A stretch of 64,000 nucleotides of DNA, taken from positions 116,622,001 to 116,686,000 of the forward strand of contig OX597819.1 in the NCBI GenBank assembly GCA_951406725.2, read 5' to 3'. The notes beneath the pieces were generated by a model. That model did not search any database and was not told the origin of the DNA. It was given only the letters and a program-made list of their open reading frames with translations. The position numbers were made by a program, and so were the translations under genes. The DNA comes from Octopus vulgaris (lineage: Eukaryota). Below are positions 4,506 to 57,522 of this stretch, one piece after another; position 1 is the stretch's first letter; each line of letters starts with the position of its first letter.

Positions 4506-6631
4506 TGCTTAGTATATAATAGAACTACTGCCACTACACACGAAACGCACGTGTGGTCGTGTAACCGTCCGCATAGGTGGGGGTCATGTATGGCTATAGG
4601 TAAGTATATATATAGGTAAGTAAGAACAGTCGAATGAAAAATTTGTTTTTAATAATTCATTGGAGTGAACGTAAAATAACTGAATCTGTATCTGAGACTG
4701 CTTCGTGACAATTTTTTCATTGAACTAATAAACACATCGGTAACAATATAAAATATAAATTGTTTGTTGTTCAATGTTAGGAAACAAAAATCTGTAGAAC
4801 GGATAAATACCATAAGCATATCGTCGTACTCCTGTATAGTTTTCCAGTTTACTAAAAACAATACGAACAGATTTCTAAGTCATAAACAATCATGACCGAA
4901 TCAGAAAAAAGCTTTTATATCATTTATACCGGGATGTGTTGCCTGAAAAAGGTGTTAATATTCGTTTGCTTTTGTTTGGACGGCCGCCTTTGTGTTATGT
5001 AACAAGAAAAATCTCAACCAATAATTTGTGCAGAAAGTGGTTTAAATTTCCCGTGTAAAGTGGTTTACTCAGCCATATAATACTATTAGCATGTTAGAAA
5101 TGTTAAGGATGCATCCTTGTATACTTCGGATGTTATCAGTAGTAGTAAATTTTTTAAATGAAACCTGAATGAATCTGATGTTATTATATATCTCAATCTC
5201 CAAGGAATTGGCAAAGTGTTGGTAAAGTTTACAATGTTGGCATAACGCTAAAAGGAGTCCATTTCACTAAATGGTTATCTATGTACAGCTATTTATACTC
5301 TGTACCCCTACTTTAAGTATTTTGGCCAGTGTGTCACGCAAAAAATCCAAAATGGATTCGTGATTATTGCCATATAGAGCTAAAATATCTTTTCTTTTTT
5401 ATGTCAGCAACCAAATTCCTAGAAATACCAGCCAAATGTCCAGAAAATTACAGCCAGCAATCTTAAATGGAGCAGAATATTTGGATGTTGTGGCACTAGG
5501 TAGATGTGTGAACAACTGACGTGATGGAGTTTGCAGGAACACCTAAATGATAGGTCTGTGTGATGAGCTTTGACCTGGGGTTAAATAAGAGCAACAATTA
5601 ATTCTTCCTCCCGACAACTTGATCGTCAGGGTCTGTCACGTAAAAGACGTACCAGAGAACCAAGTAGCTCTTTCGCGTGAATATTCAATTTTTCTTATGA
5701 TATCAATATTTACATAATTATCCACGCAATAGTTCGATAAATAGAGTCAAGCTTTGACTCCTTATGGCCAGAGGCATCAATCAATGAGAGATAAGTGATT
5801 TTGTATAAGGATGGTAGGTGAGGGGCATTTGAGAATTTCACCTCTTTGTCAAAGGTATTTCCGCGATAAGTAAAAATTATCTCGGTCGCTATCTTACTTC
5901 TTGGAGTATTTGCGTCGAACACATCGATAAAATAGATATTTCAAACATAATGCGTTTCATTTCAAGTTGTTCACTAATTTTTCTGAAGTTTCATATAAAG
6001 ATAATTTGACTTCCAACATCAAAGAAAAGTGAATAGTTTTATTTTTTTTTCTTTGCTGTTTTCTTTGTTTTTCCTTTATTTTTACATTGACATATAACCT
6101 TTTCTGGTTTCCACTTCCATTTATAGTCAACTTCTTAAAGCTAGATATCTGAAAGTTTTAAAATTGTGTATTACAGAAACTTTAAAAAGTAGAGTGCAGA
6201 CTTACTTCACTGGCATTTACTTTTGCGTTTACAAAACATCAATATACAATAAAGCTAACATTTAAATTTCACATGTTATTTGACAAGATTATATATATTT
6301 TTAGGTTTGTTTTGTGTTTCTGTGACTCAGAAAGCATTTGTTTTGTTAAATATTTGCATATGTCTTGATTTTATTTCACTACTTCTTTGTAGGTTTTATG
6401 CGCGTGTGTATATGTGTCTGTGTGTGTATTAAAGTAGAAAAAGTAAATAACCAAATAGATAAGTTCACATGCAAAGGTTATGAGTTATTGTAGCCAGTTT
6501 TATGGAGTGTATTGATGAGGAGAACGTATATTTAAAGCAGTCCGGCTAAGGTTGAGACATTCGCTTTGTAAATATGGGGTTACAATTTCTAACTCATGCC
6601 GCAAACATTAGATGAATATTTTTGGTCACAG

Positions 6632-8104
6632 AGGGTGGCGAGCTGGGGGAAACGTTAGCACGCCGGGCGAAATGCTTAGCGGTATTTCGTCTGCCGTTAC
6701 GTTCTGAGTTCAAATTCCGTCGAGGTCGACTTTGCCTTTCATCCTTTCGGGGTCGATTAAATAAGTACCAGTTACGCACTGGCGTCGATATAATCGACTT
6801 AATCCGTGTGCCTGTCCTTGTTTGTCCCCTCTATGTTTAGCCCCTTGTGGGTAACAAAGAACTAGGTATTTCGTTTGTCCTTACGTTTAAGGCGGCGAGC
6901 TGGCAGAAACGTTAGCACGCCGGGCGAAATGCTTAGCAGTATTTCGTCTGCCACTGCGTTCTGAGTTCAAATTCCGCCGAGGTCAACTTTGCCTTTCATC
7001 CTTTCGGGGTCGATTAAATAAGTACCCGTTACGCACTGGGGTCGATATAATCGACTTAATTCGTGTGCCTGTCCTTGTTTGTCCTCTCTGTGTTTAGCCC
7101 CTAGTGGGTAGTAAAGAAATAGGTATTTCGTCTGCCGCTACGTTCTGAGTTCAAATTCCGCCGAGGTGGACTTTGCCTTTCATCCTTTCGGGGTCGATTA
7201 AATAAGTACCAGTTACGCACTGGGGTCGATATAATCGACTTAATCCGTTTGTCTGTCCATGTTTGTCCACTCTAGGTTTAGCCCCTTGTGGGTAACAAAG
7301 AAATAGGTATGTTGTTTGTCCTTACGTTTAAGGCGGCGAGCTGGCAGAAAGGTTAGCACGTCGGGTGAAATGCTTAGCGGTATATCGTCTGCCGTTACGT
7401 TCTCAGTTCAAATTCTGTCGAGGTCGACATTACTTTTCATCCTTTCGGGCTCGATTAAATAAGAACCAGTTACGCACTGGAGTCGATATAATAGACTTAA
7501 TCCGTTTGTCTGTCCTTGTTTGTCCTCTCTGTGTTTAGCCCCCTGTGGGTAGTGAAGAAATAGGTATTTCGTCTGACGTTACGTTCTGAGTTCAAATTCC
7601 GCCGAGGTCGACTTTGCCTTTCATCCTTTCGGGGTCGATTAAATAAGTACCAGTTACGCACTAGAGTCGATATAATCGATTTAGTCCGTCTGTCTGCCCT
7701 TGTCTGTCCCCTCTGTGTTTAGCCCCTTGTAGGTAGTAAAGAAATAGGTATTTCTTCTGACGTTACGTTCTGAGTTCAAATTCCGCCGAGGTCGACTTTG
7801 CCTTTCATCCTTTCGGGGTCGATTAAATAAGTACCAGTTACGCACTGGAGTCGATATAATCGATTTAATCCGTCTGTCTGTCCTTGTCTGTCCCCTCTGT
7901 GTTTAGCCCCTTGTGGGTAGTAAAGAAATAGGTATTTCGTCTGACGTTACGTTCTGAGTTCAAATTCCGCCGAGGTGGACTTTGCCTTTCATCCTTTCAG
8001 GGTCGATTAAATAAGTACCAGGTACGCACTGAGGTCGATATAATCGACTTAATCCGCTTGTTTGTCTCCTCTGTGTTTAGCCCCTTGTGGGTAGTAAAGA
8101 AAGG
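6632..8104 (+). mobile_element. Tandem array of tRNA-derived Nin-domain SINE (family A): 7 bodies, 3 with full heads
   Basis: Head aaggcggcgagctggcagaaacgttagc at ~6632, 6889 and 7330; B-box-like gagttcaaattcc; Nin/Deu-like gcctttcatcctttcggggtcga; ~184-bp headless units at ~7122, 7563, 7747 and 7931; flanking 15-bp direct repeat tatttt(t/c)ggtcacag at 6617-6631 and 8105-8119. Confidence 0.9.
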
Positions 8105-8528
8105 TATTTTCGGTCACAGCTCGGTCAACCAAAATACTGCGAGTGAAATTTCATTGATAGAACCCGTGTGAGTGATGTCAAAGGATCATTCTTGTTTTGG
8201 ATGATTATCTTAGAAGTTATCTCTGACTACAAAGACTGTCAGAAATGTCATGAAACAAAGAAAGCCATTAATTACATATTACTATGAAAAAGAAAAGGAA
8301 ATTGCTGTGCAAGGAAAGGTATGGTTAAAATATTTACTTCGCAACTACTAAGAAATGACACACATATATACAGTGTATGTATAAATACATACAAACACAA
8401 CTATCTCAGCTCGATTGAACATCATCATATAACCCTATTTTCGTCTTTACTGCACATATTCACTTTTCTTTCCGCCGATCTCACAGTATTAGAGCCACTG
8501 ATACAAAGGCAGAGAGAGAAACAGTAGT

Positions 8529-8568
<40 letters not shown>

Positions 8569-8605
8569 GCGCAAACTTGCACACGCACGTCTATGTATGT
8601 AAATA

Positions 8606-8969
8606 ATGATTTTAAATTTTGGCCAGAAATTTGGGGGAGAGGTAAGATGATTACCTTGGCTTCAGTACTCAATGGGTACTTATTTTGACCTCGAAATACA
8701 TAAAAGGCAAAGTCAACCTCAGCGGAATTTGAACTCAGTACGTGAAGACTGACGAAATACCTATTTCTTTACTACCCACAAGGGGCTAAACACAGAGAGG
8801 ACAAACAAGGCAGACAAACGGATTAAGTCGATTATATCGACCCCAGTGCGTAAGTAGTCCTTAATTTATCGACCCCGAAAGGATAAAAGGCAAAGTCGAC
8901 CTCGGCGGAGTTTGAACTCAGAACCTCGCGGCAGACGAAATACCGCTGAGCGTTTCACCTCGCCGACTT
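8606..8969 (-). mobile_element. SINE family A composite (LINE-tailed unit joined to normal-tailed unit)
   Basis: Reverse complement of the array unit; junction aagaaata/ggtatttcgtc at ~8762. Confidence 0.85.
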
Positions 8970-24681: not shown

Positions 24682-24904
24682 AGTTTCTTTATTGGCCACA
24701 CAGGGCTGCACACAGATGGGACAAGTTACAAGGTAGAGCTTTTCTTTTGGGGGAGGAAAAAAAAGGTGGCGTAGGTTTTCGATCAAAAGGGATCGTAAAA
24801 GGGAAAAAAAGAACAAAAAAAAGAAAAATAGAAAAAAAGGAAAAGAAGAAAAAGAAAAAAGGGAAAAAAGAAAAGAAAAATGAAAAAAAGAAGAAAAAAA
24901 CCCC
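24682..24904 (-). mobile_element. 5'-truncated LINE 3' end (Tx1/L1-like) with perfect 15-bp TSD
   Basis: TSD aaaatactacaatta at 24667-24681 and 24905-24919; minus strand ends ..gtggccaataaagaaa; U-rich 3' UTR. Confidence 0.7.
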
Positions 24905-25759: not shown

Positions 25760-26069
25760 AATTTTCTTCGACAGCTATCTCTCTTTACAATGTGCAACAA
25801 AATGTAGGAGCACCTATTATATAGCTTTAAACTATCTTGCAGTTAAAGCATCTTGTATATTCTCAGATCGGCTGTGAAGTTAAATCGATCCAATATGGAC
25901 CGATGGGTATAATGAGCCATTAATTTTATCTAAAAATACTTAGGTAATAAAAACAAGTAACGGCCTTTGTATGATGTAATCCCGAATTAAAGATGTGCTA
26001 TTCTACATTAGTAACTCTTATATATATATATATATATACAGACACACATTTCCCTTGAATGCGCTACAT

Positions 26070-27400
26070 TTCTTCAAACGTTAAAAGAGGGAATAATCTG
26101 CCCTGTCCACAAAGGAGGAAGCAGAGCAGATGCTATAAACTACAGTCCTATCTCTTTGACCTCACACATCAGCAAGATCCTGGAACACATTGTCAGAAAA
26201 AGACAGAGCACGTTCCTATAAGAAAATGACTTGCTTACGGACACGCAACATGGTGGCCTAACGCAGCTACTACAGCACTTCGACTGGGGCCTAAATCAAC
26301 AGCTGAACCATTCAAATGTGGATGTGATATATCTCGACTTTGCCAAGGCCTTTGACAAACTCTATCATGGGATAATATGTCACAAATTGGGTGACCTCAG
26401 TATGGCTGGTAGACTGGGAGAGTTGCCACATGATTTTCTGAAGGGCAGAAGTCAGGCTATCACACCAGATGGTGCTCTCTCTGAAGTGACACCATTCTAC
26501 AGTGAAGTCCCCAAGGGAACAGCGCTTGGACTCATCCATAGAGTCATCCACAGTCAGCAGCTAGGCCGATGATACAAAAATATCGCAGGCGGTCAAGGAT
26601 CCTACTGACATCCTAGGACTACAGATGACCAGAACGCAATATATAAATGGGCTGATGAGAACGATATTCAGTTCAGTGGCTCAAAATTTCAAGCACTCCG
26701 CTATCAGCCAGCAAACAATGTAATTCGAGAGTTAGAGTCGGTGCGTGACCTTTCCATGTGTGCATTGCTCAGATAGCAACACTGTGCAGCCGAGTGGTAG
26801 GTTGGATCCTTAGCTCCTTCCGAACCAAGGACAGAGACACAATGCTTCCGTTTTGAAGAACCATTGTCCTCAGTCGCCTGGACTACTGCTCCCAAATGTG
26901 GTCCCCACAGAGTGTAAAACTAATTGCGGAACTAAAAACTATCTAACGCCACAGCACAAAGAAGATAGATTCAGTAAAAAACACATGGGCTACTGGGAGA
27001 GGTTGAAGGAACTGGATGAGACGTGAAAGATATACTGTTCTATACATATGGAACAGAATGGAGAGTCTACCTCGAAATTTTGGAATCGAAATCTACAACA
27101 ATCCCCGAACTGGACGGCACTGCACTACTGGTCACATTTTCTCTATTGAGGACATAAACCCACTATTGTAATAGCTTATGATTGAAGGGACCACAAATTT
27201 TTAATGTCCTACCATAGAACATGTGGGATCTGCAAAGTGTTTACAGGTAAGTCTTCAAAAAAACTTCTGGACAGTCTTTTATCTGCAATACTGGATGAAC
27301 CAACATCGCGGCAGGAGGCACAAAGAAGAGCGGCACCAGAAGCAACAATGTAAAAATCCCCAGATGCAGTAAAGACAGTGCACCAGCATGGCCTCACACT
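26070..27400 (+). mobile_element. Decayed CR1-group LINE, RT to 3' end
   Basis: GIICPVHKGGSRADAINYSPISLTSHISKILE..LTQLLQH..VDVIYLDFAKAFDKL..VPKGTALG..ADDTK..KGPQIFNVLP..LDEPT; many stops and frameshifts. Confidence 0.9.
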
Positions 27401-28549: not shown

Positions 28550-28884
28550 CGGTATTCGCCATGATATATCGCTAGTCACTACACTTTCTTTATTTTCTCT
28601 CCTTGTTTCTTTCTGTGTTCCTTTCTGTGAAAGAGCGTAGGCTCGAAACGTTAAAGACTTTTTCCCTTCACGAACGTTATACTAATACACATGTTTGTTG
28701 TCTACACCACCTGTCTTCGCCCTTTGCTTTTTTGTGAATTCTCCCCCTATATATATGTCTCTTTCTATAGAAGAGCATATGCTCGAAACGTTAAAGACTT
28801 TTTCTATTCCTGAGCGTTATACTAATACATCTGTTTGTTGTCTACACCACCTGTCTTCGCCCCTTGCTTTTTTGTGAATTCTTT

Positions 28885-28890
<6 letters not shown>
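28550..28890 (+). mobile_element. Penelope pLTR-like tandem repeat (140-bp period), each unit with a degenerate hammerhead-like fold
   Basis: Units at 28621 and 28761: CUUU..GAGC-NNNN-GCUC GAAACGUU AAAG; each unit ends in (TA)n. Confidence 0.65.
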
Positions 28891-28950
<60 letters not shown>

Positions 28951-30760: not shown

Positions 30761-30972
30761 AAAGCGGTGTGCTGGCAGAAGATTTAACACGCTGGGCGAA
30801 AAGCTTAGCAGTATGTCGTCTGTCTGCACGTTCTGAGATAAATTCCACCGAGTTCAACTTAGATTTTCATCCTTTCGAGGTCGATAAATTAAGTACCAGT
30901 TGCATATGTTGGTCGATCTTATCGACTGGCCCCCTACCCCCAAATTTCGGACCTTGTGCCTTAAGCAGAAAA
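30761..30972 (+). mobile_element. SINE family A monomer with normal tail
   Basis: Head aaagcggtgtgctggcagaa; Nin domain; tail ccccaaatttcggaccttgtgcc. Confidence 0.85.
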
Positions 30973-35051: not shown

Positions 35052-35647
35052 TTCTTTTCTACTCTAGGCACAATGCCCGACATTTTTAGGGATGGAACTA
35101 GTCGAATACATCACCCCGGTACGAGACAAGTAATTAATTTATCGACTCTGAATGCATGAACGGCAAAATCGACCTCGGCAGAATTCGAACTCAGAACTGC
35201 TAAGCATTTCTCCCTGCGTGCTAACCTTTCTTATTTCTTTATTGGCCGCAAGGGGCTAAACATAGAGGTGACAAATAAAGACAAACAAATGGATTAAGTG
35301 ATTTACATGGACCGCAGTGCGTAAATGGTACTCTATTTATCGACCCCGAAAGGATAAATGGCAAAGTCGACCTCGGAGGAATTTGAACTCAGAACACGTA
35401 GACAAACGAAATACCAATTTCTTTACTACCCACAAGGGGCTAAACACAGAGGGGACAAACAAGGACGACAAACGGATTAAGTCGATTATATCGACCCGAG
35501 TGCGTAACTGGTACTTAATTTATCGAACCCGAAAGGATGAAAGGCAAAGTCGACTTCGGCGGAATTTGAACTCAGAACGTAACGGCAGACGAAATACAGC
35601 TAAGCATTTCGCCCGGCGTGCTAACGTTTCTGCCAGCTCGCTGCCTT
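35052..35647 (-). mobile_element. SINE family A composite (two LINE-tailed units plus a normal-tailed unit)
   Basis: Three Nin bodies; flanking 14-bp repeat attcatttatt(c/t)ta at 35038-35051 and 35648-35661. Confidence 0.85.
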
Positions 35648-57126: not shown

Positions 57127-57522
57127 TGATGCTGTAAGCTGGCAGAATGGTTAACACGCCGGGCGAAATAAATAATGGTATTTCGTCCGCCGCTACGTTC
57201 TGTGTTCAAATTCCGCCGAGGTCGACTTTACCTTTCATCCTTTCGGGATCGATTAAGTAAGTACCAGTTACGCACTGGGGTCGATATAATCTGTCCTTGT
57301 TTGTCTGTCCTTGTTTGTCCTCTCTTTGTTTAGCCCCTTATGGTTAGTAAAGAAATAGGTATTTCGACTACCGTTACGTTCAGAATTCAAATACCGCCGG
57401 GGTCGACTTTGCCTTTTATTCCTTCGGGGTCGATAAATTAAAATACCAGTTGAGTACTGGGGTCAATGTAATCGACTATCCTCCTCCCCCAAACTTCAGG
57501 CCTCGTGCATTATTTTAGAAGG
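57127..57522 (+). mobile_element. SINE family A composite (LINE-tailed unit plus normal-tailed unit)
   Basis: Junction aagaaata/ggtatttcg at ~57357; flanking 17-bp repeat attaatgctact(g/a)gaat at 57110-57126 and 57523-57539. Confidence 0.85.

Follow-up and report, generated by a model that had tools for sequence, protein, structure and literature searches.

We analysed a window of 64,000 nucleotides of the Octopus vulgaris genome (assembly GCA_951406725.2, contig OX597819.1, positions 116,622,001 to 116,686,000 of the forward strand), which carries at 6617-8119 a tandem array of a short interspersed element (SINE). A preliminary description of this DNA had proposed that the array grows by insertion of the SINE into its own head, and this is supported overall by the data below. 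The array is made of seven SINE units (6632-8102) enclosed by a single outer target-site duplication (TSD) of 15 bp, whose two copies are as that description gave them (Table 1). The unit tails end at 6864, 7121, 7305, 7562, 7746, 7930 and 8102, and the order is head-unit 1, piece P1, head-unit 2, unit 3, piece P2, head-unit 4 and units 5, 6 and 7. The SINE itself is short, non-coding, dispersed and present in high copy number, with a consensus of 232 nt; the headless units run from consensus position +49 to the tail end (184 bp).

Table 1. Features of the 64,000-nt window, in window coordinates (TSD, target-site duplication; LINE, long interspersed element).
Feature	Position	Strand	Remark
Outer TSD, left copy	6617-6631	+	14/15 identical to 8105-8119
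Unit 1: head, shared body and alternative (LINE-derived) tail	6632-6864	+	
Piece P1: fragment of SINE +49 to +72, N1-like	6865-6889	+	3-4/23 mismatches to downstream unit starts
Unit 2: complete head, body and alternative tail	6890-7121	+	
Unit 3: headless, +49 to tail end	7122-7305	+	three tail variants in common with unit 1
Piece P2: sister of P1	7306-7330	+	2/25 differences from P1
Unit 4: complete head, body and alternative tail	7331-7562	+	
Units 5 and 6: headless, local tandem duplication	7563-7930	+	2.7% apart, five shared variants
Unit 7: headless, last of the array	7931-8102	+	9-nt deletion in tail region
Outer TSD, right copy	8105-8119	+	1 mismatch to left copy
Second composite: 5'-shortened alternative-tail unit, then headless N3 unit from +49	8600-8959	-	lower end approximate
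Sister LINE family, 3' end with more distant version of the tail	24684-24900	-	upper end approximate
Stand-alone normal-tail copy, host-type SINE	30761-30965	+	
Third composite: alternative-tail unit, +49 restart, then minor +16 restart into normal-tail unit	35066-35646	-	
Fourth composite: alternative-tail unit and headless normal-tail unit from +49	57137-57512	+	

Two tail types, a normal and an alternative one, were confirmed on the same head and body. GGTAT follows six of the seven tails of the array, leading four times into a headless restart at +49 and twice into a 25-nt piece that is followed by a new head. After the seventh tail come GG (8103-8104) and the right TSD copy; AA stands before the left copy. 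The pieces at 6865 and 7306 had been taken for matched TSDs of about 23 nt inside an older copy. They do not match their supposed partners: compared with the starts of units 3, 5, 6 and 7, P1 and P2 show 3-6 mismatches in 23 positions, which rules out this assignment. True TSDs of that geometry were found at other loci, which have two heads. P1 is closest to the consensus of a normal-tail subfamily, N1 (2/23 differences). To judge from this single locus, each piece is probably a fragment that was carried on the RNA of a source locus with two heads. Within the array, four of the six adjacent unit pairs differ by 8-11%, and units 2 and 4 have only one variant in common and are 12.5% apart. The tail variants of units 1 and 3, lying beside P1 and P2, suggest an old duplication of 441 bp.

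To describe the family without bias, we sampled 80 evenly spaced 10-kb stretches (800 kb) of the 2.8-Gb genome. Consensuses built from this sample and from search loci comprise three normal-tail types, N1, N2 and N3, and two alternative-tail types, TAGT and CAAT. Mean identity to the consensus is 89% for N1, 86% for N2, 84% for N3, 94% for TAGT and 92% for CAAT; having the highest values, the alternative-tail family is the youngest. Exact 25-nt tails occur 56,316 times (TAGT) and 12,990 times (CAAT) genome-wide, and 24,412 of the former are followed by GGTATTT. The 800-kb sample holds 61 tail matches, 58 of them with a near-intact end. TSDs are variable in length: 24 of the 44 lone copies of the main tail variant score at least 9, as against 2.25% of shuffled pairs, and in lone copies the TSD begins directly after the tail. 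The head is called tRNA-like solely for motifs that we take to resemble the A and B boxes of RNA polymerase III promoters; ARAGORN reported no tRNA in the 64-kb window, and Rfam gave nothing significant for 6600-8150 (no match below E=3). Head and core presumably resemble the octopus tRNA-derived SINEs OR1, OR2 and OK. OR1 and OR2 were reportedly described as tRNA-derived SINEs of octopus by Ohshima and Okada in 1994. A search for the published OR1/OR2 CORE-SINE consensus gave no hit in four of the five supplement files of PMC4758252.

We then counted what follows the alternative tails of the 800-kb sample, using chains that lie away from stretch ends. Among 44 TAGT tails, 20 restart the SINE at +49 and 2 at another position, 9 run into other DNA that begins with GGTA and 13 into different sequence; among 10 CAAT tails, one restart lies at +49 and two at +16. 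Within the array, the alternative tail had been said always to precede a ggtatttcgtc-like sequence: this stands for six tails, but in the unbiased sample fewer than half of the main-variant tails lead to +49. The position of the restart, described as near +50, is clearly non-random, as are the downstream flanks. Over all loci fetched, many of them selected for the junction, 208 of 218 restarts after a TAGT tail fall exactly at +49. A clean division of targets between the tails (TAGT into GGTA, CAAT into AGAA) was weakened by the C1 set, in which 11 of 28 CAAT tails are followed by GGT or by a +49 restart. CAAT-type tails are the main users of a minor second head site at +16 (C then AGAAACG; 12 restarts), with examples at window position 35232 on the minus strand and at loci L057, L077, L171, L172, L208 and L213. 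Alternative-tail copies flanked by TSDs (L011, L019) also lie at GGT in another abundant SINE and, on the antisense strand, in the body of their own SINE.

The hosts of these insertions were characterized through composites in which an alternative tail is joined to an N3 body. The pattern gave 120 matches, and the 30 fetched comprise 24 one-head loci, 2 two-head loci and 4 truncated or unresolved ones. The N3 halves differ pairwise by 0.247 (minimum 0.121), compared with 0.274 for stand-alone N3 copies, and include no close pair; the composites thus do not go back to a single dimeric ancestor, and they are not a dimeric family with both halves from one master. Downstream halves come from N1, N2, N3 and the alternative-tail (ALT) types. 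The hosts are independent older SINEs of several subfamilies. The heads of the one-head N3 composites are informative: 15 of 24 have the N3 base at position 20, compared with 4 of 39 lone copies (p=1.5e-5), and 9 of 24 have it at position 37, compared with 5 of 40 (p=0.03), but it is nearly gone at body positions 64, 142 and 143 (1/23, 1/22 and 0/22). The head is therefore usually host on the left and donor on the right. Most self-insertions seem, on these alleles, to leave one chimeric head and not two heads with a TSD, which amends the original proposal. A search pattern for two-head loci (half-head, short spacer, new head) gave 74 matches, of which 30 were fetched and 28 are distinct. An alternative-tail insert with a +49 restart is present in 23 of the 28; at 17 of these 23 loci left and right share a prefix of at least 10 nt, and at 11 they share a base that is absent from every consensus.

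The preliminary description had also predicted that the tail-swapped SINE is moved by a long interspersed element (LINE) that targets the SINE head. The search outside the window yielded a LINE with the predicted properties (for instance L423, L424 and L427-L432). A negative pattern for a LINE with the exact SINE tail gave 1,977 matches, and the 100 listed resembled, by eye, SINE variants or truncations. A looser pattern for LINE-like ends before GGTATTTCGT gave 307 matches; the 30 loci fetched were 28 SINEs and 2 ends of the partner LINE. We examined its insertion site in three overlapping sets of loci. In the first, alignment places a SINE restart at +49/50 in 28 of 30 loci and the other two begin with GGTATT; the hosts are N1 (13), ALT (11), N3 (4), N2 (1) and none (1). 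The second set consists of 20 of the 40 copies listed by a search with the internal reverse transcriptase (RT) region: the 3' end is visible in 18; in 17 of these the sequence continues with the SINE from +50, and in the other it is masked beyond GGTATT. In the third, obtained with a tail-only pattern and read by eye, the +49/50 site was found in 47 of 49 distinct loci among the first 100 of 167 matches listed. This share exceeds the 20% of flanks in one repeat that is used as a criterion for target preference (PMC4494074; here and below, PMC numbers refer to the available excerpts of these articles). This rare L1/Tx1-type LINE thus lies almost always at position +49/50 of the SINE head.

Eight young near-full-length copies of 4.95-5.36 kb, only 1.3% apart, each lie between a SINE head (1-64) and a SINE from +50. 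One of them, L429, has an intact second open reading frame (ORF2) of 1134 aa with the domains PF03372 (endonuclease), PF00078 (RT) and PF13966 (zf-RVT); ORF1 carries a zinc knuckle (PF00098). The best match of ORF2 in the PDB is L1 ORF2p (E 1.8e-64), and the domain set is also found in L1, hence is not diagnostic of Tx1. One homolog of the LINE is automatically named 'Transposon TX1'. A quick RT tree of 40 rows, with neither a curated Tx1 nor a curated L1 reference and after dropping P0032 for its short alignment, groups the LINE with a sister LINE that targets (TATC)n and with P0083 (SH-like approximate likelihood ratio test 99), and places the 'Transposon TX1' row elsewhere. We infer that the LINE would belong to the Tx1 clade and that its endonuclease would be specific for the +49/50 site. 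Its last 34 nt match the CAAT-type SINE tail at 31 positions and the TAGT type at 28, and the LINE and CAAT-type tails form the same predicted stem-loop; stringent LINEs recognise 3' stem-loops (PMC4176376). The family is rare (216 and 750 first-look candidates), and no piece of it was found in the window or in the 800-kb sample. The shared tail and the shared site make it likely that the tail-sharing SINE subfamily is mobilised by the LINE protein and inserts at the same site in its own relatives.

Other LINEs with related 3' ends were also encountered. The sister family in Table 1 is of L1/Tx1 type, and its 3' ends are 98-99% identical and usually followed by (TATC)n; L321:2773-8460 is near full length, with a microsatellite on its 5' side. 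As a partner of the SINE it was rejected for its poorer tail match (26/34) and different target. L029, L075, L108, L170, L327 and L068 are LINE families with related 3' ends, several of which end in ATT/ATC repeats; families of the L029 type appear from their ends to be a radiation of tail-sharing LINEs with different targets. L412 and L408 (C29) are pieces of LINE 3' untranslated regions ending in a TAGT-type SINE end, and L412 is joined directly to SINE positions 3-128. These may be SINE-LINE recombinants, and recombination of this kind would create a new tail.

The flanks of the young LINE copies differ far more than the copies themselves, the SINE bodies on the right being 9.9% and the left heads 9% apart pairwise. 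The LINE hosts are thus independent, and the body divergence rules out the whole head-LINE-SINE composite as the moving unit. All eight left heads carry G44 and C49, which are together in only 32 of 172 other alternative-tail heads and 10 of 95 unbiased heads. Comparison of the left and right copies of the 49-64 piece shows 12 mismatches in 128 positions; four LINE copies have T62 in the left piece and one in the right, and the clade L429/L430/L432 lacks it. On the simplest reading of these alleles, part of the head travels on the LINE RNA, which would join by homology, as modelled for R2 (PMC6895275). Two of the older truncated copies, L388 and L415, show a half-head with a TSD of 15 or 20 bp, and another, L397, is inserted at a regenerated tail junction within an array. 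Head positions 33-61 are predicted to fold into a hairpin, whose 3' arm contains the insertion site. Positions 44 and 49 close its loop and covary (T44/G49, G44/C49); G44 is paired with C49 in 38 of 46 heads, which may be one subfamily event. L417 and L418, considered as tandem LINEs, proved to be segmental duplicates; together with L008/L009 these duplicates span about 7-14 kb with LINE or SINE junctions and slightly inflate the counts.

A contribution of unequal crossover had been suggested and was supported, as crossover or slippage, by distances between units. Unit bodies of different loci differ by 0.09 on average. Among adjacent pairs, 43 of 106 differ by less than 0.04, which is below the first percentile of between-locus distance, while the others reach 0.17; repeated insertion and duplication thus both act, and the arrays do not consist of tandem duplicates only. 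By the satellite-type measure (neighbours closer than dispersed copies), which applies to part of the arrays only, one of the six adjacent pairs of the array 6617-8119 stands out. Long homogenised arrays of up to ten near-identical units were seen at L245 (C1:4,675,261-4,679,430), L237, L009 and L258, the last with complete copies repeated with a 33-bp spacer.

Taken together, these data make in-place insertion by the machinery of the head-targeting LINE, with 5' joints made by homology and later duplication, the probable origin of the composites. The SINE would have acquired its tail from the lineage of this LINE. ORF2p would nick near C-GGTATTT, at the foot of the predicted hairpin loop of the head, and reverse-transcribe the SINE RNA there. 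Because this RNA starts with the same head as the target, its complementary DNA (cDNA) would usually pair with the host head and leave one chimeric head and no TSD; less often, a blunt cDNA end would give two heads with a TSD of 10-17 bp. Every insertion would regenerate a reusable site, tail-GGTATTT, and unequal crossover or slippage would then multiply the 184-bp units. Insertion of the tail-swapped SINE is likely to seed arrays such as 6617-8119. We extend this more tentatively, at slightly less than even chances, to a closed self-targeting system: the head would be both the landing site of the LINE and the 5' end, perhaps the promoter, of its RNA, in an R2-like cycle on a dispersed SINE, and the SINE with the captured LINE tail would insert into its own family, regenerate the site and make hosts for both. 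If so, the system would have left on the order of 10^5 junctions; extrapolation from 0.8 Mb gives about 9x10^4 self-insertions, and the exact tail-plus-GGTATTT junctions set the number at no less than 24,412.

Several observations weigh against this interpretation. The SINE is far less site-specific than the LINE (20/44 versus 47/49 among the matches listed), and its remaining copies lie at GGTA, TATA, GATA or AGAA sites in other DNA. When sites are counted in the 800 kb, leaving out junctions already used, SINE heads hold 40 of 634 YGGTAT sites (Y, pyrimidine), 35 of 122 YGGTATTT sites and 30 of 44 CGGTATTT sites. A preference for 5-7 nt is too weak for the observed rate and one for 8 nt is not; since heads make up such a share of the last class, an 8-nt preference would be enough, and the head itself need not be recognised. 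A 70-80% version of the tail is carried by at least five other LINE families, which are possible alternative movers, and the shared tail and shared site would in themselves be correlative evidence. The upstream SINE is missing, without explanation, in 9 of 16 older truncated LINE copies with a visible 5' end. The G44 and C49 pair in all eight young copies could reflect a target preference, which cannot account for the left-right mismatch. At 6 of the 23 two-head loci left and right have less than 10 nt in common, 9 of 24 one-head composites lack the N3 base at position 20, and the heads of a first sample, with only three N3 composites, are of ALT type. Chimeric heads could also come from later recombination between two heads, and the divergences of head and last unit in 78 mixed composites gave no signal (rho 0.13, p=0.25). 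Finally, in the array 6617-8119 itself P1 and P2 lack partners and the end lies in unique DNA.

Part of this evidence bears on the choice of the site. The RNA 3' end, read through into GGTATTT, might mainly set the site by pairing with a loosely nicked target, the endonuclease having a weak pyrimidine/purine preference and the loop being carried by the RNA. Such pairing is compatible with in-place insertion, and as the main determinant we regard it as rather unlikely. It would fit the right-hand base at +49, which is C in 14 of 15 LINE copies of the young subfamily and G in the old one, the dinucleotides before the two outer TSD copies of the array and the share of heads among YGGTATTT and CGGTATTT sites. 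Normal-tail SINEs show the same shape, Y then NNTA, with their own tail overlapping the TSD, and RTE elements have a known correlation of tail and TSD (PMC6007223). We anchored 42 TSDs (45 minus 3 low-complexity rows), whose consensus is mostly G/A, G/A, T, A, T. Mismatches between left and right are concentrated in the first six positions (22/252 versus 3.5% further out), again as pairing would have it, but they have no clear direction, the right copy being GGTATT in 10 and the left in 6. Moreover, the non-duplicated position -1 carries a pyrimidine in 30 of the 42 TSDs (p=0.008), whereas pairing would favour A; L388 inserted in a GGCATTT host and the C was retained; and the LINE's 47/49 among the matches listed is above the head share of any motif counted.

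The remaining alternatives dispense with insertion in place. Composites might mainly be read-through multimeric RNAs of a few nested source loci, retrotransposed whole. One-head composites do have a single outer TSD (score of at least 9 in 15 of 25 ALT-ending and 11 of 30 N1-ending ones), although this is equally expected from the host's own insertion, and such RNAs would also fit the orphan N1-like pieces P1 and P2 in an array without a normal-tail unit and the LINE copies without upstream head. As the main route they are very unlikely, given that the downstream halves come from four types without clustering, that the heads bear host alleles and that divergent SINE bodies lie beside nearly identical LINEs. 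We give still less credit to template switching of the RT at GGTATTT, which one RNA has at +49 and the other at its 3' end. It would account for the single head, the single outer TSD and the precise register at +49, and young N1 does supply 21 of 27 normal-tail halves, compared with 11 of 50 typed stand-alone copies (N1-N3). However, it predicts ALT-type heads where 15 of 24 carry the host base, and it leaves unexplained both the two-head loci with private TSD variants and the full-length LINEs between head and body. That the array is only a SINE-derived satellite, grown by tandem duplication from one chance junction, is hardly credible: such satellites are known (PMC10702118), the close pairs among the 106 adjacent units and the ten near-identical units of L245 are of this kind, but the same junction, which the LINE shares, is dispersed over more than 24,000 places in varied hosts, and most neighbours in the array 6617-8119 are 8-11% apart. 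Tandem duplication stands as a secondary process and not as the sole cause, beside the in-place insertion that we favour.

Outside the array, a complete N3 copy adjoins the second composite upstream, reaching 9196 on the minus strand. A decayed fragment of another LINE occupies 26060-27200, with an RT-like open reading frame at 26222-26572 (+), and a 140-bp tandem duplicate at 28631-28896 is unrelated to the SINE.

The thousands of natural, dated junctions in this system, in which host alleles can be distinguished from those of the donor, lend themselves to the study of the poorly understood 5' joining of LINEs with an apurinic/apyrimidinic endonuclease (APE), and the intact young ORF2 makes specificity and trans-mobilisation testable. 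The system is a large-scale feedback loop and offers a defined starting mechanism for SINE-derived tandem arrays. Self-insertion may also help to explain why automated methods split such genomes into hundreds of SINE families. PMC13282606 reports 900 recently active families, L1-Tx1 families and a SINE/LINE expansion at a Jukes-Cantor (JC) distance of 0.065; a term search of its available text and supplement returned no 'target', 'nested' or 'chimer'. The literature covered, which excludes Repbase/Dfam and subscription papers, describes neither a SINE with its own head as target nor a LINE directed at the head of a SINE.

The closest precedent is that of crocodilians, in which SINEU-1/2/3 and Tx1-Mar have a common Mariner target and lie as tandem copies around the TSD (PMC4494074). 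Both systems pair a SINE with a Tx1-type LINE on a common target that is another interspersed element; in both the specificity of the SINE can be below that of the LINE (13-90% of SINEU copies are flanked by the target), and sequential insertion gives tandem copies. Unlike SINEU and Tx1-Mar, whose target is a Mariner DNA transposon, the octopus SINE targets its own family. SINEU tandem copies are whole and separated by TSDs, whereas the octopus arrays are headless units under one chimeric head, and the link to the octopus partner, unlike that of SINEU to Tx1-Mar, rests on the 31/34-nt tail match plus the target. Other target-specific LINEs of the Tx1 clade are Tx1 (in Tx1D), Keno (small nuclear RNA genes of U2) and Kibi and Koshi (microsatellites) (PMC4494074). 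Like them, the octopus LINE has an ORF2 with endonuclease, RT and zinc domains and a fixed repetitive target, but this target is a SINE head; its sister (TATC)n LINE resembles the microsatellite-targeting lineages Kibi and Koshi. R2 joins its 5' end by upstream target homology (PMC6895275), and as in R2 the octopus RNA would bear upstream target sequence and make its 5' joint by target pairing, the RNA-carried head being suggested by alleles only; R2 has a restriction-like endonuclease and inserts in ribosomal DNA, whereas the octopus LINE has an APE-type enzyme and a dispersed SINE. The SINE-derived satellites of squamates (PMC10702118) are likewise arrays in which part of a SINE is repeated in tandem; their leading and trailing units are distinct, and long arrays are homogenised. 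Unequal recombination is invoked for them, while the unit boundary in octopus is an insertion site common with a LINE. Target-specific LINE/SINE pairs are thus already known, and the octopus pair is new in that the target is the SINE's own family: the precedents covered here use an RNA gene, a microsatellite or an unrelated transposon, whereas in octopus parasite, target and passenger are one SINE family.

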